Part shown: positions 7,945 through 48,945 of the stretch, piece by piece | How positions within the stretch are numbered: the first letter of the stretch is position 1 | Layout: every line of letters begins with the position of its first letter | Assembly: GCA_050949565.1 (NCBI GenBank) | Contig: JBMNFY010000007.1 | Span: 64,001 to 128,000 of the forward strand | Direction of reading: 5' to 3' | Origin: Kiritimatiellia bacterium | Lineage (GTDB): Bacteria; Verrucomicrobiota; Kiritimatiellia; RFP12; UBA1067 | Length of the DNA: 64,000 bases | Notes under the pieces: generated by a model | Told to the model about the DNA's origin: nothing | Database searches by the model: none | Seen by the model: only the letters and a program-made list of their open reading frames with translations | Translations under genes and position numbers: made by a program

Positions 7945-8070
7945 CCCTTGTCCGTGTGTTCAGTGTATTCCGTGGTTCCCAAACCCCGAGCCATGCCCCT
8001 CCCACAAAAACCTTCGTGCCCCTCGCGTGAGAAAAAAATGAGCAACACCCCCCTGTCACCAACCGATTAC
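7945..8070 (+). repeat. Composite intergenic repeat ending in CCCCTGTCACCAACCGATTAC
   Basis: Same module order as reverse complement of 43651-43780. Confidence 0.85.
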
Positions 8071-8141
8071 ACCCCACGCTAAATCATTCTTGGTTGTGTA
8101 GATAATATGTGCTACGGTGTAACCACGAAATGGGGAGTCCT

Positions 8142-8327
8142 ATGGCGAAATGTTCATTAACAGCGTTTGTCGAGCGTGAGGGAGACGGTTTTGTTTCCCT
8201 CTGTCCCGAACTGGACATTGCCAGTCAGGGAAAAACGGTTGAAGAGGCTGCGGCTAACTTGCGGGAGGCTGTTGAACTCTACTTGGAGTGTGCTGATGCA
8301 CAAGAAATTAAATTAAGAGCCGTTTAG
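8142..8327 (+). CDS. HicB-like antitoxin (short, no adjacent HicA)
   Basis: EREGDGFVSLCPELDIASQGKTVEEAAANLREAVELYLE. Confidence 0.85.
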   Translation: MAKCSLTAFVEREGDGFVSLCPELDIASQGKTVEEAAANLREAVELYLECADAQEIKLRAV

Positions 8328-8341
8328 AAAAGGATGAACGT

Positions 8342-8572
8342 ATGGCTACGAAGATCGAAGCTCTGGAAACAAAAGTACTGGAACTGGGAATCGAGGATAG
8401 GGCTCGTTTGGCCGAGAAACTCATACTCAGCCTAGACGCGCCAGAGGAAGAGGAGAACCTGCGCCTGTGGGTTGCAGAAGCCGAGCAGCGGCTACATCAA
8501 CTTCGGGCTGGCAAAGCCACAGAGATACCTGCGCGCGATGTGTTTCGCCGCGCGAGGGCTGCGCTTACATGA
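8342..8572 (+). CDS. Putative addiction-module antitoxin component
   Basis: L..EDRARLAEKLILSLD..W.AEAEQR pattern; overlaps downstream toxin start. Confidence 0.85.
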   Translation: MATKIEALETKVLELGIEDRARLAEKLILSLDAPEEEENLRLWVAEAEQRLHQLRAGKATEIPARDVFRRARAALT

Positions 8573-8865
8573 AGCGTGTGACCTTCCACGAGGATGCAGA
8601 CGCCGAACTGATCGAGGCGGCTCGCTACTACGAGGCAAGAACGCCGAGCCTGGGGCTGGCACTCTTGCTTGATATTGAGGATGCTGTCGAGCAGATTCAG
8701 GCCAACCCAGAGGCGTTCCCGTTGGTCGGTACGGAAGTGCGACACAAGTTGCTGCGGCGGTTCCCGTACAGCGTCATGTATGCTATTGAACCCGACCGTA
8801 TACGTGTCGTGGCTGTCGCTCACCAGCGACGGCGACCTAGTTACTGGCTTCACCGTTTGACCTGA
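8569..8865 (+). CDS. ParE/RelE-family toxin
   Basis: FHEDADAELIEAARYY..LRRFPYSVMY..VAVAHQRRRPSYW; ATGA overlap with antitoxin. Confidence 0.9.
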   Translation: MKRVTFHEDADAELIEAARYYEARTPSLGLALLLDIEDAVEQIQANPEAFPLVGTEVRHKLLRRFPYSVMYAIEPDRIRVVAVAHQRRRPSYWLHRLT

Positions 8866-13850: not shown

Positions 13851-13879
13851 CGCCGCGCCCGCGCGGCGGAAAAAGTTGA

Positions 13880-14170
13880 GGTTTTTTAACGCAGAGACGC
13901 GGAGACGCAGAGGTTTTTACGGGGTGGTGGCGTGACCGCCGTCGGGAGGGGCAAGCGTCTGCTTGCCCGCGGACGAGCAGACGCTCGTCCCTCCCCTCCT
14001 GCGGTCAAAGACAAAAAAGAAAAAATCTGCGCAATCTGTGCAAATCTGCGGATAAAACCAGAAAACCGCAAGACACGTTGTCGCAGGCGAGAACGCCCGC
14101 GTTACCTTCTCACGACCTCCTTTTCACCAGAAACATGACCTTCGCATACCCCTCTCACTAACCGATAACG
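13880..14170 (+). repeat. Mosaic intergenic repeat (AACGCAGAG array, 52-bp hairpin, AATCTGYGC array, GGGCGAGGACGCCC-type hairpin, TTTTCACCAGAAAC..CACTAACCGAT end)
   Basis: Module order shared with 31344-31740; last two modules shared with 45180-45290. Confidence 0.85.
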
Positions 14171-14243
14171 ACTTTTTGATTGATTGCTGTCGATAAGTCG
14201 TTACACTTTGGGCTTGAACAGGTGAAAAAGAGGTTACAATGTC

Positions 14244-15227
14244 ATGCCCGGAAAACCTTTCCAGTCAAAACTGAACCCGCACGAGGATGAGATTTTTGTT
14301 CTGCTGGATGCGGGTTGGAGCTTTCGCCGGGTCGCCGAACAGCTTAACCGCACCCACGGCCTCGGGGTGACGCACAACGCGGTGTTCTCTTTTGTGAAGT
14401 GCCGTCGCAAACGGCGCGGTCCCCGTTTCTTTTTCGAGGGGCTCTCTCCCGATATCCGCGACCACATGCTGAAGCAGATTGCCGCTGTCTGGACGCACGA
14501 CTCTACCGCTATCGAGGGGAACACGTTAACGCTGGGCGACACGGCTAAGATTCTGGAGTTGGGGTTGACCATCAGCGGGAAAAGTCTGCGCGAGCATCAG
14601 GAGGTTTACGGACACGCCCGTGCGATTGATCTGATTTACCGGATGTTACGTCAGCCGGGTATCACCGAAAAGGATCTGTTCGCCTTGCACTGCGCCGTGA
14701 TGCAACTCTCGGCGATAGACGCCCTGAATCCGGTGGGGGCGTGGAAGCAGTCATACAACGGCACTACCGGCGTGGTGAACGGTCAGGTCGTTTTCATGGA
14801 GTACGCCGATCCCTTGGATGTGCCGTACCTGATGAAGCGATGGCTTGAAACATTCAATGCGTCGCTGGATGAAGCGCAACAACCGGAAGAGGCCGTCGGT
14901 GCTTATGTCCGGACACATCTGGGCTTCGTGCGGATCCATCCGTTTTTCGATGGTAACGGACGCGTGGCGCGGCTGGTCGCGAATCTGCCTGTGCTACGTG
15001 CCGGTTATCCGCCCGTCACCGTTCCGCTGGAGCGTCGCGGCGATTACATCGACATCCTGTGGGAGCACGAGAACGCGGTCGGCAAGATCCAGCGTGACGA
15101 TCCGCTTGTGCCGCCGTATCCAGCCATCGAGCGATTTACGGCGTTATTGCAGGCCGAATGGCAGCGGACACTGAAGCCCCTAGAAGAGGCTCGCCGCCGG
15201 GAAGCCGAGAGAAAAAGTAATAGGTAG
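14244..15227 (+). CDS. Fic-domain protein (class II) with N-terminal HTH-like segment
   Basis: HPFFDGNGRVAR catalytic motif; STAIEGN inhibitory motif; WSFRRVAEQLNRTHG HTH-like. Confidence 0.9.
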   Translation: MPGKPFQSKLNPHEDEIFVLLDAGWSFRRVAEQLNRTHGLGVTHNAVFSFVKCRRKRRGPRFFFEGLSPDIRDHMLKQIAAVWTHDSTAIEGNTLTLGDTAKILELGLTISGKSLREHQEVYGHARAIDLIYRMLRQPGITEKDLFALHCAVMQLSAIDALNPVGAWKQSYNGTTGVVNGQVVFMEYADPLDVPYLMKRWLETFNASLDEAQQPEEAVGAYVRTHLGFVRIHPFFDGNGRVARLVANLPVLRAGYPPVTVPLERRGDYIDILWEHENAVGKIQRDDPLVPPYPAIERFTALLQAEWQRTLKPLEEARRREAERKSNR

Positions 15228-15315
15228 TAGGTAATGGGTAATAGGTAAGAAGTAATAGGTAAGAAGTAATAGGTAATAGGTAGTAGGTAATAGGTAATGG
15301 GTAATGGGTAATAGT
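15218..15315 (+). repeat. 14 x 7-bp tandem array (TAATAGG/TAGTAGG/TAATGGG/TAAGAAG)
   Basis: Counted directly; related reverse-complement array at 48893-48945. Confidence 0.95.
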
Positions 15316-15402
15316 GTCCCCAAAAAAACCTCTGCGTCTCTGCGCCTCTGCGTTAAACAAACAACTTTTTTATCGTGCTTGTCGGACCGTAAGGCGCTAA
15401 TC

Positions 15403-18401: not shown

Positions 18402-19165
18402 ATCGCAGATGTACATGGCTGATGGTCGCGGCGCTTGCCGTTTGTGTGTTGGCGCGCGGCGGCGAAGTCGCCTGTCCGGGTGCATATCCGGGGCATTTGC
18501 AAGGGATTGCCCGCGATGACGATGGCAATCTCTACTGGTCGTTCACGACGTTTCTGATCAAGACCGATGCGTCAGGCACCGAGCGCGCGAAGGTGGCGGT
18601 GCCGAACCACTACGGCGATCTGACGTGGCACGACGGCAAAGTTTACGTGGCGGTCAATTACGGTGCGTTCAACAAAGAGCCGGGTAAGGCGAAGTCGTGG
18701 GTCTGCGTGCATGATGCCAACTCGCTCGCGCTGCTCTCCTCGAATGCCGTGCCAGAGGTGGTACACGGCGCGGGCGGCATGGAGTGGCACGATGGCCGCT
18801 TCTTCATTGTCGGCGGACTGCCGGAAACGCATACCGCCAACTACGTCTACGAGTACTCCGAATCGTTTGAGTTCCGGAAGCGTCACGTCATTGAGAGCGG
18901 CTGGACCCATTTGGGCATCCAGACAGTCTGCCGCGCCAACGACGGCACATGGTGGTTCGGCTGCTACGGCAAACCGGCCGTCACGTTGCGCACCGACGAC
19001 TCGTTCCGCTTCCTCGGCAAGCACGCCTTCAACTGCTCGGTGGGTGTTGCGCGTGCGCCGGACAGCGGCGAGTTACTGGTCGCGAAAAACTTCCGCTCCA
19101 AAGAGGACAAGCGCAACACGGCGACTGTGGCGCCAGTCCCGATCAAGACGATCCTCGCGAAATAA
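18398..19165 (+). CDS. Secreted hypothetical protein (beta-propeller-like)
   Basis: Signal peptide; HLQGIA, HYGDLT, HGAGGME blade-like repeats. Confidence 0.65.
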   Translation: MNRRCTWLMVAALAVCVLARGGEVACPGAYPGHLQGIARDDDGNLYWSFTTFLIKTDASGTERAKVAVPNHYGDLTWHDGKVYVAVNYGAFNKEPGKAKSWVCVHDANSLALLSSNAVPEVVHGAGGMEWHDGRFFIVGGLPETHTANYVYEYSESFEFRKRHVIESGWTHLGIQTVCRANDGTWWFGCYGKPAVTLRTDDSFRFLGKHAFNCSVGVARAPDSGELLVAKNFRSKEDKRNTATVAPVPIKTILAK

Positions 19166-19280
19166 ATAATCGGTTGTTTTTAACGCAGAGGCGCAGAGAC
19201 GCAGAGTTTTTCTACGGTGTAGCGGCGGTGCCGCGCCCCGCGCACTCCAGATTGCCGCGGGACAACGTACCTGTTACCCT

Positions 19281-19312
19281 AAAAAGAGCAGTTGAAGTAT
19301 CAACTGCTCTTT
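19281..19312. terminator. Hairpin, likely bidirectional intrinsic terminator
   Basis: AAAGAGCAGTTGA-AGTA-TCAACTGCTCTTT between convergent transcription units. Confidence 0.65.
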
Positions 19313-19628
19313 GGTTTCTGACATGGCTCGGTTTTTCTATCCACAGATGACAGATGACGCAGATTTTTTGGGGGCATGACTCGGGTTTTTCTCACACGAA
19401 GGCACGAAGGTCACGAAGGTTTTGGATGGCGGGTGTCCTCGCCCGCAAAAAGTTGAGGGTGCGTCTAAATATCTGTCCCTTTGTCGCCAAATTCTATCAT
19501 TCTTTGCCTTTCCACTATTCTATTCCCACCAATTAAATTGGGCTGCGGACTCTGCCGCATTAGCACTTGTTGCGACTACACAGTGGATTGCAACGCGAAC
19601 TCCCTACTACAAAGCGCCCCCTGTCAAT

Positions 19629-20087
19629 CTACTCTGCTTCACCTGAATCACTATTCTGAATGCGTTGAATCAAATCAGTAAATGAAGACGCTATCGGCAT
19701 GATCGCACAACTGGGATCGGCTTCTTCATGGAACCACAGTACAATGTCTGGGCTAGTTTTCCCTGCGCCGTAGCGGAAACAAACATAATTTCCCGTTCCG
19801 TCATCAGCAATTGGGAGTAATCCAGCGGGCAGGCGATCACGATAAATATCAAGCAAGAGCAAGACGTTTTCTTTTGTATCGTTTTCCGAAAAACTGATGA
19901 ACGAGTTGATATCAAAAATGCTTCCATCTGGAAGAAGAAGTTCCGAAGGGTTCGGAATCGCCCCGTTGTACCGCCGTAGCCATGCTTTGAAATCTTCGGG
20001 CAGAGACCGCTCTAAAATAGACTCGATGCGAGAAATATCTTGCTCGGTTACCGGCGTTTGCATCAACATCCACTCAAGCTGTTTCAT
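19629..20087 (-). CDS. SMI1/KNR4 (SUKH) immunity protein
   Basis: IESILERSLPEDFKAWL..NG, LLPIADDGTGNYVCF, W.HE, IASSFTDLI. Confidence 0.92.
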   Translation of the reverse strand: MKQLEWMLMQTPVTEQDISRIESILERSLPEDFKAWLRRYNGAIPNPSELLLPDGSIFDINSFISFSENDTKENVLLLLDIYRDRLPAGLLPIADDGTGNYVCFRYGAGKTSPDIVLWFHEEADPSCAIMPIASSFTDLIQRIQNSDSGEAE

Positions 20088-21097
20088 GATTGAATTCCTT
20101 CCGTCGAATCGGTTTTTTTGAGGAGATCGCTTAAAGCTTGGTCATTAGCTGTCCGCACTGAGTCTAACTGTTGCCAGCGTGCTTTCGATTCAGCTTCCCG
20201 GCAGATTTGCTCTTGGATTTGCAACTGTTGCAAGCGATAACTCTCCCAACAGTAATCTACGAGAGCGCGCGTAGCCGCATAAGACAAGGTCGCCCCCCAG
20301 GTAGCCGGGCTTCCATAAAGAATCCGAATGCCATGAAACCAGCCGGGCGGCGGGGCTGCGGCCTGAGGAAGTAGTTTCGCTATGAGATATTCTGTGCTGA
20401 ATGCAGCTGTACCGCCCGCAACTGCTCGGGTTGTCGCCTGCGCAAAATGGTCAACATCCAATTCGCCATCGGCTAGCAACCCCGCCGAACTGGCGGCAAT
20501 GTCAAAGACCGCAACAGAACCCCATCGTAAAGCAGTCAAACGTAAGGCGCGTTTACTGTCGAATTGACCCCACGTCTTCGCGCCGCCTACATGATCAGTA
20601 GAATGTTCGTTTTTATCCACGAGTTGCATTCGGCCCCCTTTCCCATCGTGGTGCCATGCTTTTCCCCGCGGGGTTTTGCGTTGCTTTAGTATTAGTAGTT
20701 GAATGTCTTCCTCGGTAAGTTTAAGTTTCTTTATCAAATCTGGATTCTTCTTGCATGCTTCTAGGAGCTTCTCACTGCAGTGTTTTGCGTAGGAAGAACT
20801 GCGATATTGGGAAGGCTCTAGTTGAACATCAAACTGTGATTTGAACTTTGGAAATCCCCGCCAATCATAGTGAACTCCAGTGCGAGCATCAACTGTGTTT
20901 GCAAGCTTATGTAATTTTTGATAGTTCGCATTACTCAAGAAGTCGCTACGCAACAAAAAGGAACGTCCGTATGGCGCAAGGGTACCCGAAGACGACAATG
21001 CGTCTGATGCCGTAGAAGGGTCTGATGCATCCGCATAAGTAATTGAAAATGAGGTGCAAAGCACCACCAGAGCAAGTAAAACCTTAGAAGTCATCAA
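20084..21097 (-). CDS. Signal-peptide protein with WHH/colicin-DNase-type HNH nuclease and C-terminal hydrophobic helices
   Basis: TGVHYDWRGFPKF..TPRGKAWHHDGKGGRMQLVDKNEHSTDHVGGAKTWG; N-terminal LLALVVLCTSFSITYA. Confidence 0.85.
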   Translation of the reverse strand: MMTSKVLLALVVLCTSFSITYADASDPSTASDALSSSGTLAPYGRSFLLRSDFLSNANYQKLHKLANTVDARTGVHYDWRGFPKFKSQFDVQLEPSQYRSSSYAKHCSEKLLEACKKNPDLIKKLKLTEEDIQLLILKQRKTPRGKAWHHDGKGGRMQLVDKNEHSTDHVGGAKTWGQFDSKRALRLTALRWGSVAVFDIAASSAGLLADGELDVDHFAQATTRAVAGGTAAFSTEYLIAKLLPQAAAPPPGWFHGIRILYGSPATWGATLSYAATRALVDYCWESYRLQQLQIQEQICREAESKARWQQLDSVRTANDQALSDLLKKTDSTEGIQS

Positions 21098-22094
21098 GGG
21101 TTTTCCTTTTTTCTAAATTGCGTATTGCTTGATATCGCACCCGCTCTTTAGATTTGAGGGCATCGATACTGTCATAAAGCTCATAAAGCCTTTTTGTTAT
21201 TTCCCTTGAGAGCGAAGGTTCGGCAACAAGCGACACGTTTACCTCGCTCAGCCGCCTGTAAAGCTCCATTGCTTTGGCTTCATCCAACTTACGCGACACA
21301 TTCATTGGATCAGTTTCTCTATAAAGACCTTCGGCCCAGAGTGTATACTTGAGGCGCTGCCTTTCCCTCAGTACGGAAGCGGCATGACCTAGGTGAGCCA
21401 TTGCGGCCTCCCATTTCTCGCGAGCAGTTCCGGTTGCATCAGGAGAAAGAGACATCAGAATCTGACGTGCGGATTCGCACTCCTGAAGGCAGGTGCTTAA
21501 AAGTCCGTTTGCTTTGGCGTTTTCAATAATTGAGAGATTTTCTTTTTTTGCCTTTTCTACAGCCGAATTGATAATTACGATGGCCTTTTCAATTGAGTCC
21601 AGTGTTGTTGAAGCAGCGACAGTCGAAGACTCCTGATGATTTGAATCCGCCCTGTTTGCGTCATTGTCATCAGACAAGTTTGATTCCGTCTCAATTGTTT
21701 TAACGAGTTCTAAAGCCCATCTTTGGTCTTCAGCAGATAGCCACCCGAAGGGGATAGCCTGAATAATCGACAGCGCGTCAAGCTGAATGGCTTCACGCAT
21801 GAACGGGCTCACATCTTTATCAGGTACAGAGGCGATGCGTTTACGCGCAAGCTCAATCATCTGCTGGGCATGCTTTCGCTTTTCCACTTCATACTTCGCA
21901 TCAGTAATGAGGGCCTGGATGACTTGCTTGTCAACATCCTTGTTAGGATTCGCCAACAAGGCTTCCAGACGTACAATTCTGTCCTGCGGCGAGAGCGTGT
22001 GGTTGTTCCGAATTTCGGATAATGTGTCCGCCCTTGCAGAAAAAACCGTCAGCAGCCCCCCGAATGATAAAATTGAAAGGATTATGGTTCTCAT
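21084..22094 (-). CDS. Secreted alpha-helical hypothetical protein
   Basis: Signal peptide ending ARA; helical/coiled-coil composition; overlaps both neighbours. Confidence 0.75.
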   Translation of the reverse strand: MRTIILSILSFGGLLTVFSARADTLSEIRNNHTLSPQDRIVRLEALLANPNKDVDKQVIQALITDAKYEVEKRKHAQQMIELARKRIASVPDKDVSPFMREAIQLDALSIIQAIPFGWLSAEDQRWALELVKTIETESNLSDDNDANRADSNHQESSTVAASTTLDSIEKAIVIINSAVEKAKKENLSIIENAKANGLLSTCLQECESARQILMSLSPDATGTAREKWEAAMAHLGHAASVLRERQRLKYTLWAEGLYRETDPMNVSRKLDEAKAMELYRRLSEVNVSLVAEPSLSREITKRLYELYDSIDALKSKERVRYQAIRNLEKRKTLDDF

Positions 22095-23197
22095 TTCAAA
22101 GGCCCGAATGTTTCAAAAGCAACGAAACTTTTGTCTGCGACATCATCGGCCGATGCCTTACCGATGAATGCCCAGCTCTTGCCATCAATCTTGCCAATTT
22201 TTGACGAGAAAACTAAGGCGTCTCGACGAACGCGGTTTTTCTTGTAAATAAGCACTTCCGTACCATCGCCTGTATTCTTGAGAACGGTAATGATCGGAAT
22301 TTTAACGTTGATGTCTGTTGTAAGCGCAAAAGGAGCCTCCTTCCGAAATGGATACTCATTGGCACCTTGTTTGAGCACGACATAATACTTCGCACTGTCA
22401 ACCTTCTTCCCGCCTTTCAAAGCCGCTGCCTGACTCAGGTGGATGCTTCGAATCCGCACAATATACCTCTCGCCAAGCGCTAAATTTCCCTGCTCAACCG
22501 GGGTCTTCGCTTCGCGAAGTCGAAACGCTACGGACGCTGTATGTTTTTCTCCTAGATTAGTCTCGTCGTAATCAAGCCTGCCGTTAAGCGGGAACTCTTC
22601 ACTTTCCGGACATTTCATCTCAAATACAATCCGATCATTGGCTGACAACGCTCCGGTCGCGGTACCCGCAGCAATTCCTGTGCAACCTCCAATGACCGCA
22701 CCGATGAGTGCCCCAGCAGGAGCACCCAGCCCTCCAGTAAAGACTCCGGCAGCTATGCCACCGATGAGAGCTCCTACGCCTATTAATCCCACGACACCAA
22801 TTCTGCCAGCCGTTGCCGATGCCTCAACTTCTTCAGAGATCTCAACTTTTTTATCGGAAAAAAACACATTGATGCTGATCGTGTTCCCTTTTTCCCACAG
22901 CAATGCGGGCATCGCGTCATGCGTTGCCGGCCATTCAAAAACAGTCTGATTTCTGCGTACCTTTTTCTTCGGTGATGTCCACACAGGCACCCCATCGCTT
23001 TTGATGACAAGATAAACGTACGTGCTAGACAGTATAGCTAGGTGTTTTTTGGAAGCCTTTTCCTGAAAATAACGCGGCATCGTTATTGATTGCAGTTGCG
23101 TTGCGTACAGTTTTGCACCTTCGGCTTGCTCCGCCGCATAAGCGCCTAGAGACACCACGAGGCTAAGAATGATGGTCGTCAGCAGGGTTCTGGACAT
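22091..23197 (-). CDS. Secreted protein with central glycine-zipper hairpin
   Basis: Signal peptide ending AYA; GALIGGIAAGVFTGGLGAPAGALIGAVIGGCTGIAAG; GAGGAG RBS. Confidence 0.75.
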   Translation of the reverse strand: MSRTLLTTIILSLVVSLGAYAAEQAEGAKLYATQLQSITMPRYFQEKASKKHLAILSSTYVYLVIKSDGVPVWTSPKKKVRRNQTVFEWPATHDAMPALLWEKGNTISINVFFSDKKVEISEEVEASATAGRIGVVGLIGVGALIGGIAAGVFTGGLGAPAGALIGAVIGGCTGIAAGTATGALSANDRIVFEMKCPESEEFPLNGRLDYDETNLGEKHTASVAFRLREAKTPVEQGNLALGERYIVRIRSIHLSQAAALKGGKKVDSAKYYVVLKQGANEYPFRKEAPFALTTDINVKIPIITVLKNTGDGTEVLIYKKNRVRRDALVFSSKIGKIDGKSWAFIGKASADDVADKSFVAFETFGPLK

Positions 23198-23296
23198 GTC
23201 TTTCTCCTCTATCGCTTGTTAAACGGTGTGTTGGGTTCAATTTCGCGCACACGCGACATCAACCCAAAATTTTCCTCAAAACTCCTAACTTCTGGA

Positions 23297-23326
23297 ATAG
23301 TATTGTTTTCATTGAGGGCTTGTCAA
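23297..23326 (-). promoter_or_regulatory. Sigma70-like promoter of the toxin operon
   Basis: Minus strand TTGACA-18 bp-TACTAT. Confidence 0.55.
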
Positions 23327-23487
23327 ACGCTGTTTTCAATCGTGGCGCGATCATGATCGATTAGTAACAGGGGCATGCGAGTCGAGTGCGCGTTTTGTTG
23401 CGCAGTCGGGGGCAATGCCCTCAAAAAAACCTTTGTGCCCTTTGTGCCTTTGTGTGAGATTGGCACGCCTCGCGAAATAGGCGCGCG

Positions 23488-31343: not shown

Positions 31344-31875
31344 TGTTTTTTAACGCAGAGACGCAGAGGTTTTGATGGATGCGGCGTGACCGCCGCTGGG
31401 AGGGGCAAGCGTCTGCTTGCCCGCGGACGAGCAGACGCTCGTCCCTCCCGGTGCTCCGCAATGAACCCTGAAACCATCCTTCCGCACAGCGGAAGGCGGC
31501 TCGTGGGGACACTCGCCATCCATTGCCCGTCCCTGCGGCTCGTGGGGACACTCGCCATCCAAATCATGTCAATCATGTCAATCATGTCAAAAAAATGAAA
31601 CCATGGAACACGGGCAAGATGCCCGTGCCACACCCTTTTGCAAGACACGTTGTTGCGGGCGAGGACGCCCGACTCCAAATCTCTGCTCCCCTTTTCACCA
31701 GAAACGCACGATCTTCGCACATCCCTGTCATTAACCGACTGTGGATGGTCATGGAAAAACCTTTGTGTCCTTTGTGCCTTTGTGTGAGATTGAATTGGGT
31801 TGCGGGCTTTACCCGCGCTAGGTGAAAGGATCTAATAACGTTCAACGCTTAACGCTCAACTTTTAACGCTCAAGT
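31344..31875 (+). repeat. Long mosaic intergenic repeat
   Basis: AACGCAGAG array, 52-bp hairpin, GGCTCGTGGGGACACTCGCC x2, AATCATGTC x3, REP-like hairpins, CCTGTCATTAACCGA motif, CTTTGTG array, heptamer array. Confidence 0.9.
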
Positions 31876-40210: not shown

Positions 40211-40211
40211 A

Positions 40212-41030: not shown

Positions 41031-41134
41031 GAAAGCATTCCCCTTGGTTACTCGCTGTATCATAGCAAATTATGAGAGTCATATACCACCAAATGCGAAA
41101 AAATAATAATGCATTTTGCGCAATGAGGGAGGAG

Positions 41135-41400
41135 CGGAAGGCGGCTCGCGAGGACGCTCGCCCTCCAGTCTATGATCAGGCTTGCGGAACGCCGAGAGTA
41201 AGCGTCTACTGCAAAATTTGGAGACAAGAACTGCGCTGTGCGCGGGTCGCGGCACCGCTTTTGCGTACCATCCTGCCGTCGCACTCCTACTCAAAAAGCG
41301 GCGTCGCACGGAATACCGCTTGCCGCCGCACTCCAAATTTTTTCGCCAGACTTGCGGGTTCCGAAGGAAACAAACGTTCAACGCTCAGCTTTCAACTTTG
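41135..41400. repeat. Mosaic repeat (GGAAGGCGGCTCGC..CGCCCTCCA hairpin, inverted TTGGAG..CTCCAAA element, heptamer array)
   Basis: Homologous to 26279-26504. Confidence 0.8.
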
Positions 41401-42178: not shown

Positions 42179-43137
42179 GGCTGTGTATGCCAGCAGCGCG
42201 AACGGTGGCTGTCGGCGTCGTCGGTTTCAGGGGGTTGTTCGGCGTGGCAACGCGCGTCGGCCTGTGCGCAGCGCGGCGCAAAGGCACAACCGGCGGGCCA
42301 GGCGTCCGGCGAGGGCACGGTGCCGGGAATATCCTGCAGCGGAGCGTTGCGCGGTGCGTCAAGCATCGGCACCGCGGCGAGCAGGCCGCGCGTGTAGGGG
42401 TGGCGCGGGTTCGACAGCACGTCGGTCACGGCACCGGACTCTACCACCTGCCCCGCATACATCACATACACGCGCGTCATGCGCCCGGCGACCAATCCGA
42501 GGTTGTGGGTGATCAGCAACACCGCCATGCCGTCGGCGTCAGCCAGTGTGTCAATCAGGTCGAGCACCTGCTGTTGGGTTGTGACGTCAAGAGCGGTGGT
42601 CGGTTCGTCTGCAACCAACAGCTTGGGACGCGCGGCTAACGCCATGGCGAGCATGACGCGCTGCTGCTGGCCGCCGCTGAGTTCGCACGGGAAAGCGCGG
42701 GCCGCGCGGGCGGGATCTGGGAGTCCAGTCCGCGTGAGCAGTTCAACGCAGGCGTCGCGGTGCGCGGCGCGCGGCAAGTCAGGCAGGCATTCCGCGATTT
42801 GATCTTGTACGCGCATCACCGGGTTGAGGCTTGCAGAGGGGTCTTGAAAGACATACGCGATACCGCGACCGCGTACGCGGGTCAGGGCGTCGGGACTGAG
42901 CGCCAGAGTGTCCGTGCCGTCAAACAGCACACGTCCCTGCAGGCGGGCGCGATCCGTGGGCGAGAGCCGCGTGAGCGACAGGGCGGTGAGACTTTTGCCG
43001 CAACCGCTTTCACCGACTACAGCGACGCGCTCGCCGGCCTGGACGGTCAGCGAGACATCACGCACAGGCGTGGTCAGCATTCCGTCACGTCGGAACGTGA
43101 CGGAGAGGTGATCAACTTGGAGTAGGGGATGGGGCAT
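42166..43137 (-). CDS. Oligopeptide ABC transporter ATP-binding subunit (OppD-like)
   Basis: GESGCGKS, LSGGQQQR, ADEPTTALD, HPYTRGL, C-terminal Cys motif. Confidence 0.92.
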   Translation of the reverse strand: MPHPLLQVDHLSVTFRRDGMLTTPVRDVSLTVQAGERVAVVGESGCGKSLTALSLTRLSPTDRARLQGRVLFDGTDTLALSPDALTRVRGRGIAYVFQDPSASLNPVMRVQDQIAECLPDLPRAAHRDACVELLTRTGLPDPARAARAFPCELSGGQQQRVMLAMALAARPKLLVADEPTTALDVTTQQQVLDLIDTLADADGMAVLLITHNLGLVAGRMTRVYVMYAGQVVESGAVTDVLSNPRHPYTRGLLAAVPMLDAPRNAPLQDIPGTVPSPDAWPAGCAFAPRCAQADARCHAEQPPETDDADSHRSRCWHTQPCHS

Positions 43138-43164
43138 GATTAGGCAACTCTCAACTTTCAACTC

Positions 43165-43401
43165 TTAACTCTCAACTTTCAACTCTTTTTCGTCCCCGTC
43201 ATCTTTTGTTCGCCGCCGATTTCTGGTTGTTTTGAGCCTCAAAAAATAATCGATTAACCCCAGAAGAACGATACACGTCCACAACACGACATGCCACTTC
43301 AAACGGCTGGAAGCTTGGGAGTACATGCGATAGTACGAGCTAACCGTGTTGAACAGCGCTATGGCCACAGCAATGATCCAAATGATTGTTCGCATTTTCA
43401 T
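43165..43401 (-). CDS. Small 2-TM hypothetical protein
   Basis: Two hydrophobic segments; lower GC; ends in heptamer array. Confidence 0.55.
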   Translation of the reverse strand: MKMRTIIWIIAVAIALFNTVSSYYRMYSQASSRLKWHVVLWTCIVLLGLIDYFLRLKTTRNRRRTKDDGDEKELKVES

Positions 43402-43416
43402 GGGAAACTCGTAGAT

Positions 43417-43548
43417 TCAATTTTCACCGACTACAGCGACACGCTCGCCGGCCTGGACGGTCAGCGAGACATCACGCACGGGCGTGGTCAGCATTCCGTC
43501 ACGCTGGAACGTGACGGAGAGGCGATCAACTTGGAGCGTGAGTGCCAT
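43417..43548 (-). pseudogene. Truncated duplicate of the oppD 5' end (43 aa)
   Basis: 43422-43536 matches 43008-43122 at 110/115 nt; reads MALTLQVD..VAVVGEN then stop. Confidence 0.85.
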
Positions 43549-43938
43549 GATTTACCTGCCTTTCGCCGACGCGGTATACTCCCAGATTTCGAACATGGCG
43601 ACATGGTATCTTTTGCGTTACATAAATCAACAACTTTTTTATTCCGCGTGGTAATCGGTTGGTGACAGGGGGGTGATGCTTGGTTTTTTTATCACACGAA
43701 GGCACAAAGGGCACGAAGGTTTTTTGGGGGCATGGCCCGGGTTTGTTTAACCACGGAATACACTGAACACACGGAAAGGCACAGCTCTGCTGTTTCACGC
43801 GAAGACGCGAAGATTGGAGGGCGAGTGGTCCCCACGAGCCGCCTTCCACTGTGCGGAAGGATGGTTTCAGGGTTTATTGCGGAGCGCCGGGAGGGGCAAG
43901 CGTCTGCTTGCCCGCGGACGAGCAGACGCTCGTCCCTC

Positions 43939-44634
43939 GTGCGCCCAGCATGGGCATGTACTAGTCAACTGAAAGGAGTTGATCGCAAAAGCAGTGACAG
44001 CAAGCGTAGCGAAACGGCAAGGCCGCGACCGCAAGGGAGTGAGCTGAAGGAAGCCGATAGCAAAGACACGGCCGCAGGAACACGAACGGGCAGTGAGGCA
44101 TGGTCCGGGCGATGAGTGTGCGAGGAAACACGAAATCCGACAGTCACCGAAAGACGCACTGTGTAGAGCCCGGCGGCACGGGTCGAAAGTACATGCACCT
44201 TACCTGGGGAGGCCCCGTGCGTGAGAGCGGACGGGGAGTCAGCAGAGGCCGTAGTAGTGAAGAGGCCCGCCGAAAGGCGGGAGGAGCGAAGGGCCGAAGG
44301 ACAACGAAAGTGCGGTCAGCCGACCGCCTTGGAAGCATGGCGAGGAGGGATGTGAAACAAAGGGGCGCGACAACTACGGTAGCCACCTCTGCGGCGCGGC
44401 GGGTCGGAGCCGGTGGATTCCGGTTCTGTCCAGTCGCACGCGGCCTGAGTCAGGCTTTCAGCGGCATGGAGGTGATGGATGATGCACAATGAAGCGAACA
44501 TGGCGTTGCCACGCCGTGGGACTTCGCGGGGGCGCGTCAGCGACCCCCGCCGTGTCCAACCGCCGTATGCGGAAAACCGCACGTACGGTGGTGTGGGAGG
44601 GGCACGGGGCGCAATCCCCGTGCCCCCACCCGAT
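43939..44634 (+). ncRNA. ORF-less group IIC intron (696 nt)
   Basis: 5' GTGCGCCCAGCATGGGC; domain V AACCGCCGTATGCGGAAAACCGCACGTACGGTGGTG with CGC triad; domain VI ending CCCGAT; lies directly after a hairpin. Confidence 0.9.
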
Positions 44635-45289
44635 CCTGGCGGCGGTCACGCCGCCACCCCGTAAAAAAATCTCTGCGCCTCTGTGTCTGCGTTAAAAAAC
44701 TTTCAACGCTCAACTCTCATTTCGGCACTCACAAGTCAGGCGAAAGATTTGGAGTGCGGCGGCAAGCGGTATTCCGCGCGACGCCGCTTTTTGAGCAGTG
44801 TTTTTCCGCGCGTGGCGCGGAGGGAAAGCGGTGCCGCGACCCGCGCACAGCGCGGCTCTTGTCACCGCACTCCAAATTTTCCGCCGCGCCATGCGCGGCA
44901 CAACCTTTTGCGCCCGCGCAGCGGAAAATCATGTCAATCCTGTCAATCGTGTCAAAAAAAACATCCTGCTTTTCACCAGAAACGCATAATCCTCGCGCCC
45001 CCCTGTCACTAACCGCGCGATTACCGCGCACTGTAATCGGTTGGTGACAGGGGGGGGCATGCGAGTCGAGCGCGTGTTTTGTGCGCATGCAAAGGTGGCG
45101 TGGGCGTCCCGCCCGCTCTGTGAAAGGCCACTCGTGATTCCGGCGCGCGGTTTGGTTTCGAAATGAAATACGCGCATCACCCTTTTGCAAGGCACGTTGT
45201 CGCGGGCGAGGACGCCCACGCTACCTTCTCACGGCCCCCCTTTTCACCAGAAACGCACGATCTTCGCACCCCCCTGTCACTAACCGATT

Positions 45290-46699
45290 CGCGGTCCGTC
45301 AAATAGAAAAGACACCGTAGGTTTTTTTGAGGCGGTGACGATCCGTCAAATACTGGACACCGAGGGGGTCAAGGGACGAGGGGCTGGTCAACGGCGTGAA
45401 GGGCGCGGAACCCGGGGTGGTCATCCCTTGCGCTTCGCGTTTGGCGAGCTTGTTCTGCTTGCGCAGGATCAGCGCGTATCGGCGGCGGATGTCCTCAAGG
45501 AGGCGGATCGGATTGGTCTTTTCGCGGAGCGCGGTAAGACGCCGGATCACGGCGGGGTCCGCGTATCCCGACGCAATCACCCTGTCGAGGGGCGTGGCGG
45601 GCTTGTCGTAACGCTTGGAGAAGCCGTGCGAGTCCGGCCTTTTGGTTTTGGAGATGAGCCGCTTGCAGGGGCGGAAGAGGTTGTTGTACAGCGATATCTT
45701 CGCGCACAGGACGTCCATGTCCTTCTTGAGCTCGAGGCGGTCGATGCGCTCGTAGCCGAAATACTCGCGGACGACGGAGGCGTTCTTCTGCTCCACGCGG
45801 GCGTTGTCGTTCTTGTTCCCGGGGCGGGAACGGGTGAAGGCGAGGGGGCGGGGGCGGTCCCGCGCGTAGCCGAGCACGTGGGCGTTGAGGAACTCCAGCC
45901 CGCTGTCCGAGTGCATGGCCGTGAGCGGGAACGGGAACGCGGCCTCGGCGTCGGCGAGGCCTTCCTTGGTCGCGGCCGCGCCGCGGTTCCAGACGCAGCG
46001 CAGCTCCGTCCACTGCGTCAGGCGGTCCGTGAGCGTGAGGATCCAGAAGAAGTTGCCGCTCATGTCGCCCCCGCAGAGCGCGACCGTGTCGACCTGCGTG
46101 TCGCCGGGGGCGGCGGGCGGCAGCGCCTCGCCCGGGACGCAGGGGACGCTCGACGCCAGCGCGTTCGCCCCGCTGCGGCGGTTGCGGCGGCGCGGGGCCT
46201 CGCGCGGGTGCTTGCGGAGGATGCGCTCCATCGTCGACGCGCTCATGCGCAGAACCTGCGCCGCGGCCGCCTCGTCGACATGCTCGAGCTCGCGCAGCGC
46301 GGCCATCTGGCGGTCCGCCACGGTCACAAGGTACCGGGGCGTCATGCGTCCCGAGGCGCGCCAGAGACGCAGGAACAGGGCTTCCGCCCCGGGCGTGTAC
46401 GTCTTCCCGCGCCCGGCGTGATCGCGGTACTTCCGGTTGCCGGTCAGCAGCCGGATGGCGTATTTGCGCTCGGCCCCCGTGACCTGGCAGAAGTCGTCGA
46501 TCGCGGCACTCTTGGCCTTCTTGCTCTTCAGTTTTGAATAGGCGCGACGCTTCGCGCCGACGTATCCCATCGTGGCTTTCCGTGACATCTCGTTTCTCAT
46601 GCGAGCCGATTCTAGCACGGTGTCCAGTATTTGACGGATGCGCTTGATTTCCGGACACCGCGATTTTGGCTACGGTGTCCATGACTATGACATACCGCG
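45290..46699 (-). mobile_element. IS element with rve-type transposase
   Basis: Imperfect terminal IR CGCGGT..GTCA; perfect 22-bp subterminal IR ATCCGTCAAATACTGGACACCG (45341-45362 / 46618-46639); flanking GATT direct repeat. Confidence 0.75.
45299..46600 (-). CDS. Integrase-core (rve) DDE transposase, ISNCY-like
   Basis: QVDTVALCG, HSDSGLEF, NDNARVEQKN; very high GC3. Confidence 0.88.
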   Translation of the reverse strand: MRNEMSRKATMGYVGAKRRAYSKLKSKKAKSAAIDDFCQVTGAERKYAIRLLTGNRKYRDHAGRGKTYTPGAEALFLRLWRASGRMTPRYLVTVADRQMAALRELEHVDEAAAAQVLRMSASTMERILRKHPREAPRRRNRRSGANALASSVPCVPGEALPPAAPGDTQVDTVALCGGDMSGNFFWILTLTDRLTQWTELRCVWNRGAAATKEGLADAEAAFPFPLTAMHSDSGLEFLNAHVLGYARDRPRPLAFTRSRPGNKNDNARVEQKNASVVREYFGYERIDRLELKKDMDVLCAKISLYNNLFRPCKRLISKTKRPDSHGFSKRYDKPATPLDRVIASGYADPAVIRRLTALREKTNPIRLLEDIRRRYALILRKQNKLAKREAQGMTTPGSAPFTPLTSPSSLDPLGVQYLTDRHRLKKTYGVFSI

Positions 46700-46722
46700 G
46701 ATTACCCGCGCACTTACGTTGC

Positions 46723-48171
46723 AAGGACTTTCCCCAAAAAATCGGGGGCAATTATATCTAAGTCCTTGAAAACAAAGGGGATGCGTCTCTGACGGGCGTG
46801 CCTGAAAGTGAAAAAGTGGTTTTCCTCCGCCGGTTCTGCCAAAATGGCGGTTCAACCAAAAACCAAAAACCGGAAAGGAAAACCGACATGAATCATAGCG
46901 CAACGGCGTTCAAAGCGCGAGAGCAACTCAAGAATTTTTTGGGGGAACTTTCCCCCCGGTTTTCCAAGCCGCTCGGCAAGTTCGTGGGCGACATGGTCTA
47001 CGGGATACAGGCGTCGCAGGACGTGAAGCTCAGCCGGATCGCCCGCGCGCTCGACGAGCCGATATCGATGAAGAAACTGGAGGACAGGCTGAGCCGGATG
47101 CTCGGGAGCGAGGGCATCGAGCAGGGGATTTCCGACGCTGTCGCCCGTCTGGGCTCGCGTCACGTCCATCAGGACACGCTGATCGTCATCGACCCGACCG
47201 ACATCCGTAAGCTGTACGCGAAGAAGATGGAATATCTCGCCCGCGTCCGGGACGGGAGCACGGGGGAGATCGGCAACGGATACAGCGCCTGCCTGGCGGT
47301 CGCCTGCGAGAGCGGCGGCCGCCGGATCACGCCGTTGCACATGCGGCTGTGGTCGAGCGAGGCGGAGGGCTTCATCAGCCAGAACGACGAGGTGCTCGGC
47401 GTCATCGACCAGATCAGCTCCCGCGCGAAGAAGCGCGGCATCTACGTCATCGACCGCGGAGGCGACGGAGACTGGCTGTTCGACGGCCTGGACCGGCGCA
47501 AACTGGACTACATCGTGCGCCTCGTGGGCAACCGCAACCTGCTCCACGGCCGGCGGACCGCGCTGGCCGAAGAACTGGCGGCATCCTGCCCCATGAAGCA
47601 CATCGAGATCGTCACGAGGGAGACGGGGGACGGGGTGAAAAGCTATAAGCTGGAGTTCGGCGCCATGACCGTCGCCCTGCCGCAGAGGCCCGACAAGCCC
47701 CTGCGCATGGTCGTGGTGAAGGGGTTCGGCGAGCGGCCGATGCTCCTGCTGACCACGCTGGCCGGGACGACGTCGCGCAAGTCCCTGTGGCAGGTCGTCG
47801 AGGGCTATCTGACGCGGTGGCGCGTCGAGGACGCGATCCGCTTCGTCAAGCAGAGCTACAACCTCGAGGACATCCGGGTCCTGACGTACCGGCGCCTGAA
47901 AAACATGGTCGCTCTGCTGCTGGCCGTCATCTACTTCAACTGCGTCTGGCTGGCCGGACGGCTGCGCTGCGAGATCCTGACGACCAACATCACCCACGCC
48001 GCCAAGCGCATCTACGGCGTGGCCGAGTTCCTCCACTACGCCGTCGCCGACGGCCTCGGGAGGCTCTTCACGCGCCACGGGAAATGGTACGGCTACAAGC
48101 CGCCAGACCCCGAATCAAACCCGCTCGGACTGGTCTTTCTGGAATGACCAGATTTTTTGGGGAAACTCCTT
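46723..48171 (+). mobile_element. IS4-like insertion sequence (1449 bp)
   Basis: 21-bp IRs AAGGA(C/G)TTTCCCCAAAAAATC with 1 mismatch; 9-bp TSD TTACGTTGC (46714-46722, 48172-48180). Confidence 0.92.
46888..48147 (+). CDS. DDE transposase, IS4-like
   Basis: IVIDPTD, VIDRGGD, Y..RWRVEDAIRFVK (YREK-type signature). Confidence 0.9.
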   Translation: MNHSATAFKAREQLKNFLGELSPRFSKPLGKFVGDMVYGIQASQDVKLSRIARALDEPISMKKLEDRLSRMLGSEGIEQGISDAVARLGSRHVHQDTLIVIDPTDIRKLYAKKMEYLARVRDGSTGEIGNGYSACLAVACESGGRRITPLHMRLWSSEAEGFISQNDEVLGVIDQISSRAKKRGIYVIDRGGDGDWLFDGLDRRKLDYIVRLVGNRNLLHGRRTALAEELAASCPMKHIEIVTRETGDGVKSYKLEFGAMTVALPQRPDKPLRMVVVKGFGERPMLLLTTLAGTTSRKSLWQVVEGYLTRWRVEDAIRFVKQSYNLEDIRVLTYRRLKNMVALLLAVIYFNCVWLAGRLRCEILTTNITHAAKRIYGVAEFLHYAVADGLGRLFTRHGKWYGYKPPDPESNPLGLVFLE

Positions 48172-48220
48172 TTACGTTGCGCATGGACGATTAGAAACGA
48201 ATCGGGTACAATGTGTTGAG

Positions 48221-48781
48221 GTGCTGGGTTCTCTCACACAACTAGCTCAATGCGATCCGGCCAAGTACAATCCTCGCCTACAGGCCCTCCTTAAACCACA
48301 GTTGAAGCAGACCAACAAGAGTGTTAAGGATATCCTGCTAGCTGTCTGGTCGGCGGATCTGCGCGATCTGGCACCCGCCTTAGAAAACATCGCCACTTCC
48401 TCACCTGACGACTACGAGGACGAAAGAGCCCGCAGTTGCGGAGGCGAAGTGCGTGCTATTGAAGGGCGTTTTCATTTGGCCAGGCAGATTCTGTCCCTGT
48501 GGAACGAAGAAGATGCGATGACTCGGTGCAGATTGTTGTTGGCTTTCGGATTCAATCATGCGTACGAGTTTGTTGAAGAACCGGTACCTGAACGGCTGGC
48601 CCGCATGAAGATCGAACTTGCCAAGACAGCACAGGCGCTGACTTGTGATGAGCGGAAGGAAGCGACCGACTTCCTTCAGTGGTATCAAGATGAACACATC
48701 AACAAAGAGAATGAACCGGTGTATCGTGATCGTCTCGTCAAGTTCGCCGCATTGGCCCAAGCCGTGCTGAATCTCCAGTAA
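48221..48781 (+). CDS. Hypothetical helical protein, possibly a 5'-truncated fragment
   Basis: 186-aa ORF, lower GC, GTG start with weak RBS; stop codon lies within the inverted repeat motif. Confidence 0.5.
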   Translation: MLGSLTQLAQCDPAKYNPRLQALLKPQLKQTNKSVKDILLAVWSADLRDLAPALENIATSSPDDYEDERARSCGGEVRAIEGRFHLARQILSLWNEEDAMTRCRLLLAFGFNHAYEFVEEPVPERLARMKIELAKTAQALTCDERKEATDFLQWYQDEHINKENEPVYRDRLVKFAALAQAVLNLQ

Positions 48782-48945
48782 TCGATCAGTGACAGGGGGG
48801 ACGAGGGGCATGCGTTTCTGGTGAAAAGTAGAGTAGAGAGTCGGGAGCGCGGGCGTCCTCGCCCGCAACAACGCGTCTTGCAAAAGAACGGACTATTACC
48901 TATTGCTTATTACTTATTACTTCTTACCTATTACTTCTTACTTCT
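48778..48945 (-). repeat. Inverted copy of the 45180-45290 composite repeat plus heptamer array
   Basis: GTAATCGATCAGTGACAGGGGGG..GCGTTTCTGGTGAAAA..GGGCGTCCTCGCCCGCAACAACGCGTCTTGCAAAA. Confidence 0.85.

Follow-up and report, generated by a model that had tools for sequence, protein, structure and literature searches.

The repeat and its copies in the window

The window (the whole 64,000-nt stretch of DNA analysed here) carries repeated copies of one short motif, located among accessory-looking genes, composite repeat units and insertion sequences. The features discussed below are the following:

7945..8070, plus strand: one-ended copy, C-type internal module and terminal repeat 8050-8070 (0 mismatches)
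13868..15401 (approximate): Fic islet, absent in the relative G005, where the convergent genes lie 23 bp apart
14068..14169, plus strand: one-ended copy, A-type module and terminal repeat 14149-14169 (2 mismatches)
19155..23469: polymorphic-toxin islet with minus-strand ORFs, namely a SUKH immunity ORF, a Colicin-DNase/WHH ORF and two further ORFs of no assigned family
23353..23373, minus strand: degenerate copy of the terminal repeat (4 mismatches), beta-type module on its right
31635..31740, plus strand: A-type module with a decayed terminal repeat at 31720-31740 (5 mismatches, counted by hand)
43651..45020: composite two-ended unit, left repeat 43651-43671 (0 mismatches), right repeat 44997-45020
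45033..45291: complete two-ended element of 259 bp, left repeat 45033-45053, right repeat 45271-45291
45289..46699, minus strand: IS-1, an insertion sequence of ~1.4 kb, inserted into the end of a terminal repeat
46722..48171, plus strand: IS-2, a 1449-bp insertion sequence of the IS701/IS4 type (DDE_Tnp_1)
48778..48886, minus strand: one-ended copy, terminal repeat 48778-48798 (2 mismatches) and A-type module

When the window was searched with CCCCTGTCACYAACCGATTAC at up to three mismatches, six matches were recovered (8050-8070, 14149-14169 and 45271-45291 on the plus strand; 43651-43671, 45033-45053 and 48778-48798 on the minus strand), against none in each of 100 shuffles. The motif described in a first-pass annotation of this DNA is thus real, and the remaining three sites claimed there are degenerate copies of the same 21-bp repeat. 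Across the genome (G000), 125 copies were found at up to four mismatches. Read tip first, the terminal inverted repeat is GTAATCGGTTRGTGACAGGGG, and the two outer ends of an element unit are written here as GTAATCGGTT...AACCGATTAC. Homology among genome copies stops at the last bases of GATTAC (1199 pairwise alignments; modal end 0, next commonest -2 and +1), which agrees with the earlier description of the motif as the inner end of a longer repeat. No RNA family matching the repeat was found in Rfam.

The individual copies differ in what they adjoin. The 8050-8070 repeat is followed by 19 nt, TTGGTT (8090-8095), 17 nt, TACGGT and a hicB-like ORF (ATG at 8143), the 14149-14169 repeat is separated by 74 bp from the downstream Fic ORF (14244-15227), and 26 nt lie between the degenerate repeat at 23353-23373 and TTGACA-N18-TACTAT, behind which the toxin operon starts (23197); no gene start lies behind the 31635-31740 copy. 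In the composite unit, the right repeat (44997-45020, plus strand) contains a 3-bp insertion, and the interior holds a C-type module, a REP-like double hairpin (43888-43938) and the RNA domains of an ORF-less group II intron (44025-44197, 44558-44634). The supposed head-to-head pair at 44998-45057 consists of the repeats of two neighbouring elements that abut tip to tip.

The ~110-bp inverted repeats previously noted around 3.5 kb are likewise present (arms 45182-45273 and 48795-48886, 92 nt, 79% complementary), with two unrelated insertion sequences and one 186-aa ORF making up the 3.5 kb between them. IS-1, present in nine genome copies, displaced the last bases of the right repeat 45271-45291 and generated a 4-bp target duplication (GATT at 45289-46699); its 439-aa ORF has a weak IS481/IS3-type match only. 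IS-2 (at least 12 full genome copies, 8-bp duplication TTACGTTG) separates the repeat from the promoter of ORF 48221-48781, into the gap before which it inserted; the stop codon of this ORF is the TAA within the repeat tip (GTAATC) of the 48778-48798 copy. Neither of these, nor an IS5-like element that duplicates CTAAG, was retained as a parent of the repeat: all have different ends of their own and are nested insertions.

A family of small elements with 9-bp target duplications

Genome-wide, 57 of the 125 copies have an inverted partner (at most 6 mismatches) within 1.2 kb, compared to 2 of 125 for a reversed-motif control, and the other 68 are one-ended. Adjacent inverted pairs number 24 in this genome (78-974 bp), and complete elements extend from 78 bp to ~1 kb, with the repeat at each end and interchangeable modules inside. 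Other genomes and metagenomes supplied 49 unique two-ended elements, and a 9-bp target duplication borders 25 of them (at least 8/9 identity, 17 perfect), versus 0 for shuffled pairings and 0/49 in both the 8-bp and the 10-bp registers; in G000, a duplication of at least 8/9 is seen in 2 of 23 pairs (null 0/506). The one-ended copies, about half of those in G000, are remnants lying within a mosaic that other small repeats help to form. Terminal inverted repeat pairs and target duplications bear out the earlier suggestion of a dispersed transposon end, and we consider the motif, with high probability, to be the 21-bp terminal inverted repeat that ends the members of a Kiritimatiellia-specific, non-autonomous MITE family whose insertion is non-random and phased to promoters, and which does not capture genes.

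The motif was detected in 19 of 41 relatives (copy number 0-115), and the copy-rich genomes G082 and G046 hold 99 and 257 copies, many of them at contig ends. Nearly all of the 109 loci retrieved from the genome collection come from Kiritimatiellia-type MAG records. Lineage-specific consensus variants and this patchy presence would fit bursts of transposition. At the dnaX site the element is present in G000 and in the sister species G004 and absent in G005, and the argS, tolB and hicB-like promoters were found without the element in relatives. Judged from these comparisons, the insertions are recent relative to the dnaX, argS, tolB and hicB-like promoters, conserved as these are in relatives lacking the element; the relatives are fragmented MAGs with diverged flanks at dnaX, argS, tolB and oppD, and the empty-site junctions are not base-exact.

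From the repeats at both ends, the interchangeable modules and the 9-bp duplication, we infer a DDE-type transposase supplied in trans. No transposase or autonomous copy, and no parent insertion sequence sharing these terminal repeats, was found in G000 or in 130 metagenome and viral loci, in line with the earlier proposal that the enzyme is not encoded beside the motif. The ORFs that long pairs enclose belong to ordinary genes or to nested elements, with no transposase gene inside, and the long inverted pairs of 0.7-4.5 kb, tried as autonomous copies, contain ordinary genes in both G000 and the metagenome loci. A 279-aa ORF (P0001), located in a 1663-bp two-ended element of G082 with a perfect duplication (AAATTAAAG), was also considered as a transposase and rejected as a nested passenger: it represents a multicopy family that, among 151 genomes of the order, is present in 51 and is lacking from G000, four of its homologue loci are free of the motif, and the gene carries palindromes of its own (TGTAATCTTG...CAAGATTACA). 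To our knowledge, no cognate transposase of the Correia elements is encoded in Neisseria genomes, and by this analogy the absence of a parent insertion sequence would not exclude membership among MITEs.

Islet boundaries and the origin of the motif

The motif had been proposed to mark the entry of nearly every accessory islet, as a gene-capture or integration site; on an integron- or att-like reading, foreign cassettes would enter there and cargo would start at the motif. Five window copies do precede accessory-looking genes (a toxin-antitoxin cassette, Fic, the polymorphic toxin operon, an oppD fragment and the 186-aa ORF), four AAA_14/DUF4143 ATPase paralogues lie just 3' of copies elsewhere in the genome, and downstream windows of low GC are in slight excess (11 of 121 below 0.53, vs. 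5.7% of background). However, core genes are as frequent downstream as accessory ones: the downstream ORFs (51 scanned) include tolB, ybgC, dnaX, argS, PEP carboxykinase, fpg, rnpA, pgsA and miaB, a functionally unrelated set which also led us to discard a single regulon. The expected low-GC enrichment did not materialize either, as the 1 kb downstream has a mean GC of 0.602 against 0.604 for the genome (121 copies), and low GC was abandoned as a proxy for accessory cargo since this downstream DNA is no different from the genome.

The islet edges, moreover, are found ~100-280 bp beyond the motif, and the comparison of filled and empty sites placed the breaks away from it for both the Fic and the toxin islet. 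At the edges of the Fic islet stand inverted triple-repeat modules of the TTTAACGCAGAG type (13882-13924, 15318-15360) rather than the motif, which lies ~280 bp inside the boundary. The toxin islet has a 10-bp direct repeat, TCGCGAAATA, at both edges and the motif ~100 bp inside; it is missing from four metagenome runs (three DNA and one RNA-library run), whose contigs join 19154 to 23470, the uncovered positions 19675-23009 being counted only because these contigs bridge them. This comparison used assembled contigs, and short-sided joints (sides of 20-35 letters), which are repeat-derived, were left out. In G004, the same hicB-like cassette and its promoter are present without the motif. The 9-bp duplications border the element rather than any cargo, the long inverted pairs contain no recombinase among their ordinary genes, and as to an associated recombinase, one XerC/D-like gene lies downstream of one of the 51 copies scanned, with nothing recurring. 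Because the element lands in intergenic DNA before core and accessory genes alike, the motif is no mark of foreign-gene entry, and a gene-capture site is very improbable; the element does not capture genes, and the window islets simply carry or adjoin copies. Mobilization by a different class of enzyme, i.e., as a REP/REPIN-type element moved by a RAYT (HUH Y1) or as an IS200/IS605-type palindrome-associated element, appears extremely improbable. The genome is full of REP-like hairpins, the best of seven Y1_Tnp matches is located 240 bp from a motif copy, and the motif ends in TTAC, which is the target of IS608. Yet the Y1_Tnp genes carry their own flanking repeat family (TAATGTCAAACTACGACCCC, 20 bp, 46 copies), for which reason a RAYT/Y1 transposase was rejected as partner, and the motif is not a hairpin but the end of a family with terminal inverted repeats and 9-bp duplications, whereas we know of no HUH element that makes a target duplication; IS200/IS605-type elements, which insert 3' of a fixed tetra- or pentanucleotide, are not known to have terminal inverted repeats either.

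Placement relative to promoters

In every set examined, 16-21% of copies have a -35-like TTG at a distance of exactly 20 bp downstream of the element end, far more than expected by chance. Copies with TTG beginning at +21 number 18 of 124 in G000, 21 of 119 in other species and 33 of 160 in the metagenome set, these three sets partly overlapping, with some loci from the same or near-identical species; for the unique copies combined the count is 39 of 237, a -10-like signal following at +44 to +50, and TTG starts at other offsets in about 1-9 copies each. Within G046 and G082, 44 of 71 matches to ACCGATTAC-N-TTGAC have a spacer of exactly 20 (8-32 allowed; hand tally), and 35 of 51 do in G046 alone. 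By contrast, 2170 ends of other repeat blocks used as a control gave a flat distribution with no phasing, although these ends are k-mer-defined, include only 16 motif ends and serve as a control for other repeats only.

The 20 bp correspond to the 9-bp duplication plus 11 bp before the -35-like TTG(AC). Within the repeat, TGAC is found 12 nt away from the tip, and at phased promoters it recurs 12 nt beyond the duplication; otherwise, the 12 nt between duplication and -35 box bear no likeness to the repeat tip. A comparable spacing is found where elements meet tip to tip (nine sites, spacers 9, 9, 9, 9, 9, 9, 8, 7 and 6, with 0-30 allowed). Together, the phasing and the tip-to-tip spacing suggest, on geometrical grounds, a targeted insertion. 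The transposase may read TTGAC at the target as an element end, with TGAC mimicking the box within its own repeat, and purifying selection would then retain only intergenic insertions, mostly at real promoters. We thus tentatively propose, with somewhat less than even confidence, a promoter-seeking transposon that targets -35-type TTGAC through TGAC mimicry or a mark left by RNA polymerase.

RNA polymerase-dependent targeting or selection could produce the same phasing. One variant keeps the same MITE and lets RNA polymerase or sigma distort or mark the DNA ~50 bp upstream of the start, a distortion that the transposase would prefer. Full -35/-10 promoters at the phased sites are consistent with this, as is the first T of TTG, which is as enriched as TGAC even though the repeat has a G there, but the tip-to-tip junctions share the 9-bp geometry where no promoter is involved, and we regard a purely polymerase-guided choice as rather unlikely. 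A cis-regulatory site spread by the mobile element seems improbable. Here, a host- or element-encoded protein would bind the repeat at about -57 to -77 and modulate the promoter, the phased copies being kept by selection rather than produced by targeting. The constant spacing to a -35 box that is followed by a -10 box would fit, as would the strong conservation of the 21 bp across families of the order where internal modules differ, and the Correia element offers a precedent as a MITE with promoters and an IHF site (summarized in PMC10969869). The phased genes are nonetheless functionally mixed, including dnaX, argS and tolB, whose promoters work in relatives that lack the element, and many copies abut stop codons or other repeats. 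In addition, phasing is sharpest in the youngest and most uniform copies (those of G046), which favours an insertion mechanism over slow selection.

With the 9-bp duplication and 11 bp placed before TTGAC, promoter-seeking insertions would fall at about -56, just clear of the promoter, so that hundreds of upstream regions, including those of essential genes, could be colonised without killing expression; if this is true, regulatory DNA further upstream gets replaced by the element. Such targeting would make this a bacterial transposon homing to the upstream edge of promoters, at once a safe niche for the element and a ready-made swap of upstream regulatory DNA. The 20-bp distance to -35 boxes is itself fixed across species and sharpest in copy-rich genomes. 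More generally, these results remove a tempting but wrong reading of the motif as a chromosomal gene-capture site, and define a MITE family that had gone unannotated and that breaks the assemblies of Kiritimatiellia genomes, which are common in anaerobic digesters.

Comparison with known systems

Among the literature matches listed, none describes such Kiritimatiellia repeats or promoter-phased insertion, and several known systems share part of the features reported here. Integron attC/attI sites and MITE-bracketed cassettes are also short conserved sites beside accessory genes, but no integrase is encoded in the vicinity of the motif, the cassettes come with promoters of their own and the motif lies off the cargo boundaries; for a MITE-bracketed composite, the inward-facing copies have the wrong orientation. 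REP/BIME and REPIN-RAYT systems resemble the family in being abundant intergenic repeats, often in inverted pairs and in mosaics with other repeats, and differ in that the motif forms no palindromic hairpin, the elements make a 9-bp duplication and another repeat accompanies the Y1 genes of this genome.

IS30 integrates beside its own inverted repeat, forming tandem dimers with an IR-IR junction and a characteristic target duplication (as summarized in PMC9333248). This targeting of inverted repeats by IS30 and IS911 resembles the arrangement of the Kiritimatiellia tips, where the spacer between abutting tips is 9 bp, as long as the target duplication. IS30, however, is autonomous and makes 2-bp duplications, and the putative pseudo-end of the Kiritimatiellia family is the -35 box of a promoter.

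Correia elements, the MITEs of Neisseria, are small, non-coding and flanked by terminal inverted repeats, exist in >100 copies mostly just 5' of genes, influence or adjoin promoters and carry sigma-70-like promoters of their own (summary in PMC10969869). The Kiritimatiellia family is likewise small, non-coding, gene-upstream and present in >100 copies. The sequences are unrelated, and where Correia elements have 26-bp repeats and a TA duplication, the Kiritimatiellia elements combine a 21-bp repeat, a 9-bp duplication and a modular, mosaic interior with target promoters that pre-existed. Pneumococcal BOX, RUP and SPRITE are also described as small interspersed repeats of modular build, found in clusters and inserted one into another (PMC3049150, PMC10969869). 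Their modularity is shared by the Kiritimatiellia family. We know of no terminal inverted repeats or target duplication in BOX elements, whereas the Kiritimatiellia family is a classical transposon with both terminal inverted repeats and target duplication.

Motif copies and element anatomy

Searching the window with CCCCTGTCACYAACCGATTAC, the repeated 21-bp motif with GATTAC at its tip, gave six matches at ≤3 mismatches (0 in each of 100 shuffles), and three other sites hold degenerate copies, which bears out the recurrence reported in the first-pass annotation. The features involved are as follows.

8050, 14149, 23353, 31720 and 48778: one-ended copies
23353-23373: degenerate motif copy, 4 mismatches
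31720-31740: degenerate motif copy, 5 mismatches, counted on the sequence
43651-45020: composite element; inside are a REP-like double hairpin and group II intron RNA domains without an ORF
44997-45020: degenerate motif copy with a 3-bp insertion
45033-45291: complete element, 259 bp
45289-46699: IS-1, insertion sequence, 9 genome copies, 4-bp duplication, inserted into the last bases of the repeat
IS-2: IS701/IS4-like insertion sequence, at least 12 full copies, 8-bp duplication TTACGTTG

The genome of the window (G000; 4.66-Mb assembly, 60% GC, the window being C7:64001-128000) carries 125 copies at ≤4 mismatches, 26 of them exact. Distribution among relatives is patchy (19 of 41 carry the motif, 0 to 115 copies per genome), and consensus variants are lineage-specific. 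In two copy-rich genomes, G082 (99 copies) and G046 (257), many copies stop just 30-50 nt short of a contig end, which fits a recently amplified repeat. Many metagenomes from digesters, bioreactors and landfills contain window 39001-49000.

In all copies the sequence 3' of GATTAC is unique and the 5' side is one of several interchangeable repeat modules. Homology stops at the last bases of GATTAC in the 1199 pairwise alignments containing the motif, which is thus a sharp repeat terminus. An inverted partner on the repeat side (≤6 mismatches, ≤1.2 kb) accompanies 57 of 125 copies vs. 2 of 125 for a reversed-motif control, and 24 adjacent pairs make units of 78-974 bp. A flanking 9-bp direct repeat (≥8/9) is kept in only 2 of 23 G000 units (null 0/506), and in 25 of 49 unique two-ended units from other genomes and metagenomes (17 perfect; at least one pair among the 49 is a single locus read on both strands); mismatched pairings gave none, and the 8-bp and 10-bp registers 0/49. 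One 1663-bp unit in G082 is flanked by a perfect AAATTAAAG duplication. Because of its terminal inverted repeats, fixed 9-bp target duplication, small size, high copy number and lack of an internal transposase, the motif family is a MITE, and the earlier proposal of a transposon end served by an enzyme supplied in trans is upheld.

Two arrangements described previously could be refined. The "head-to-head pair" (44998-45057) is the junction of the neighbouring elements 43651-45020 and 45033-45291. Inward-facing copies at 45271 and 48798 bracket 3.5 kb made up of IS-1, IS-2 and one 186-aa ORF, whose stop codon is a TAA within the repeat tip.

IS-1 recurs at 8 other genome sites and measures 1457 bp, about 47 bp more than the window copy; its ends read CGCGGTCCGTCA.../...ACCGCG, and it makes 4-bp duplications. 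No Pfam family matches its 439-aa ORF, for which NCBIfam gives only a weak IS481/IS3 match (E 1e-5). At 44025-44634, directly after the REP-like double hairpin (43888-43938), Rfam group II intron domains D1-D4 (95.8 bits) and V-VI (46.3 bits) lie ~610 bp apart without a reverse-transcriptase ORF; an intron with no ORF, or a decayed one, has inserted here behind the hairpin. GTAATAG-type heptamer tracts adjoin A-type internal modules at 15198-15323 and 48893-48941, in inverted orientation. The oppD 5' end is duplicated over 115 bp (43008-43122 and 43422-43536), and between the copies lie a CTCAACT heptamer tract and a 78-aa ORF. After four codons (MALT) the upstream copy is joined to the beginning of a gene that the relative G004 has intact.

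Islet boundaries and downstream genes

Filled and empty sites in relatives and metagenomes showed that the boundaries of the Fic and polymorphic-toxin islets do not coincide with the motif. In the relative G005 the genes on either side of the Fic islet are only 23 bp apart; in G000 the 1.5-kb insert has inverted TTTAACGCAGAG-type modules at its edges and the motif ~280 bp within. The 4315-bp toxin islet, with a 10-bp direct repeat TCGCGAAATA at either edge and the motif ~100 bp inside, is skipped by contigs from one RNA library and from three DNA runs of different studies, in which 19154 runs straight into 23470. The hicB-like toxin-antitoxin cassette has the same promoter and no motif in G004, and window 43138-48980 is wholly absent from G005, with only decayed motif-like sequence upstream of oppD there.

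Over most of 5-16 kb the metagenome contigs without the toxin islet match the window almost exactly, with 0-8 differences per kb-scale piece; in the stretches beside the islet (16699-19154 and 23470-25000) they diverge by 3-6%. Homologous recombination apparently brought the islet in as part of a diverged block. Triple 8-mer modules (AACGCAGAG..., CCTTTGTG...) stand at the outer edges of the Fic and toxin islets and, rather than the motif, may mark mobile units.

13882-13924: triple 8-mer module
15318-15360: triple 8-mer module
19177-19211: triple 8-mer module
23425-23462: triple 8-mer module
31755-31792: triple 8-mer module

Mean GC of the 1 kb downstream was 0.602 (121 copies) vs. 0.604 (20,000 random windows), with 9.1% vs. 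5.7% of windows below 0.53. A co-directional ORF starts within 350 bp in 70 of 125 copies, and the 51 downstream ORFs scanned include many core genes (tolB, ybgC, dnaX, argS, PEP carboxykinase, B12-dependent ribonucleotide reductase, fpg, rnpA, pgsA, miaB, menA, carbamate kinase). Convergent-gene 3' ends adjoin 19 of 56 classified copies, mostly at -4 to +14 bp, and some other copies adjoin other repeats. With core genes downstream, GC near background and islet edges away from the motif, the gene-capture interpretation is not supported: the motif is not an entry site for foreign genes.

Four G000 copies have AAA_14 + DUF4143 ATPase paralogues directly downstream (C15:29413-30690, C16:50033-51286, C17:1777626-1778801 and C5:13624-14823), a tentative association.

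Phasing with promoters

Counting offsets from the base following GATTAC, TTG occurs at +21 in 18 of 124 G000 copies (0-8 at other offsets), 21 of 119 copies from other species and 33 of 160 unique copies from metagenome and viral contigs, these sets sharing some loci from near-identical species; pooling the first two gives 39 of 237 unique copies. The 39 carry a -10-like signal (+44 is T in 22, +45 is A or T in 34, and +49 and +50 are each T in 22). The pattern TTGnnn-N16-18-TAnnnT lies within 60 bp of 37 of 125 G000 copies, 22 of them at offsets 19-22. Searching G046 and G082 for ACCGATTAC-N(8-32)-TTGAC returned a spacer of exactly 20 in 44 of 71 matches (35/51 in G046, where one sequence is present on two contigs, and 9/20 in G082). 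At 2170 ends of other G000 repeat blocks, used as a control, TTG is evenly spread (mean 38, sd 7; 32 at +21) and the promoter pattern has no peak.

The promoters are older than the insertions and are conserved in relatives without the element: the dnaX promoter is kept in six such genomes (G001, G003, G005, G006, G009, G010), a 37-bp spacer in G005 standing where G000 and G004 have a 550-bp element, and those of argS and tolB are likewise conserved.

The 20-nt distance is made up of the 9-bp duplication plus 11 nt, so that the -35 box TGAC starts 12 nt past the duplication. Inside the repeat, TGAC likewise starts 12 nt from the tip (GTAATCGGTTAG|TGACAGGGG), and tip-to-tip spacers at nine sites in G046 and G082 measure 9, 9, 9, 9, 9, 9, 8, 7 and 6 bp (0-30 allowed). 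From this matching geometry and spacing we infer that a repeat end, or a sequence like its inner box, would steer a new insertion into the 9 bp beside its tip; intragenic insertions beside TTGAC would be purged, so that survivors would sit at promoters. Three points count against this model: enrichment is just as strong for the first T of TTG as for TGAC, the other 12 nt are unlike the repeat tip, and the search described below found no enzyme. Polymerase-guided targeting or selection for a regulatory effect could possibly produce the phasing instead of end- or box-directed insertion.

Search for the enzyme

Units that combine two terminal repeats with a 9-bp duplication do not exceed 674 bp in G000, and the longer inverted pairs, both there and among 130 metagenome and viral loci, have ordinary genes between them. 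P0001, a 279-aa ORF in a G082 element, was rejected as the transposase: it is a nested passenger with its own palindromic ends and four homologue loci without the motif. Pfam gave no match to it, and its multicopy family is spread over 51 of 151 genomes of the order. Palindromes of the form TGTAATCTTG-N-CAAGATTACA border the ORFs of this family (up to 14 matches per genome; loci L386:904-2200 in G082:C171, L390 and L395), which is possibly a mobile gene not yet described.

Genes with an N-terminal Y1_Tnp (HUH) domain are bordered by inverted copies of another REP-like repeat, TAATGTCAAACTACGACCCC, which is present 46 times at ≤3 mismatches and partly arranged in tandem arrays of 3-4. The stop codons of these genes fall within the repeat; genes and repeat together look like a RAYT-type system of its own.

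G000:C8:242526-243582 (L018:1527-2582): Y1_Tnp gene with TAATGTCAAACTACGACCCC flanks; 45 other repeat sites

Comparison with known systems

Limited word searches of the literature returned no description of the MITE family or of such promoter phasing; this is a new MITE family with an unusual, testable target rule. The tip-directed insertion inferred here resembles what has been described for IS30 and IS911, namely IR-targeting and the formation of IS dimers (PMC9333248). As a kind of MITE, the family is like Correia and similar elements (PMC10969869); it differs from them in sequence, 9-bp duplication and mosaic interior and, chiefly, in lying at a fixed distance from promoters that the element does not itself supply.
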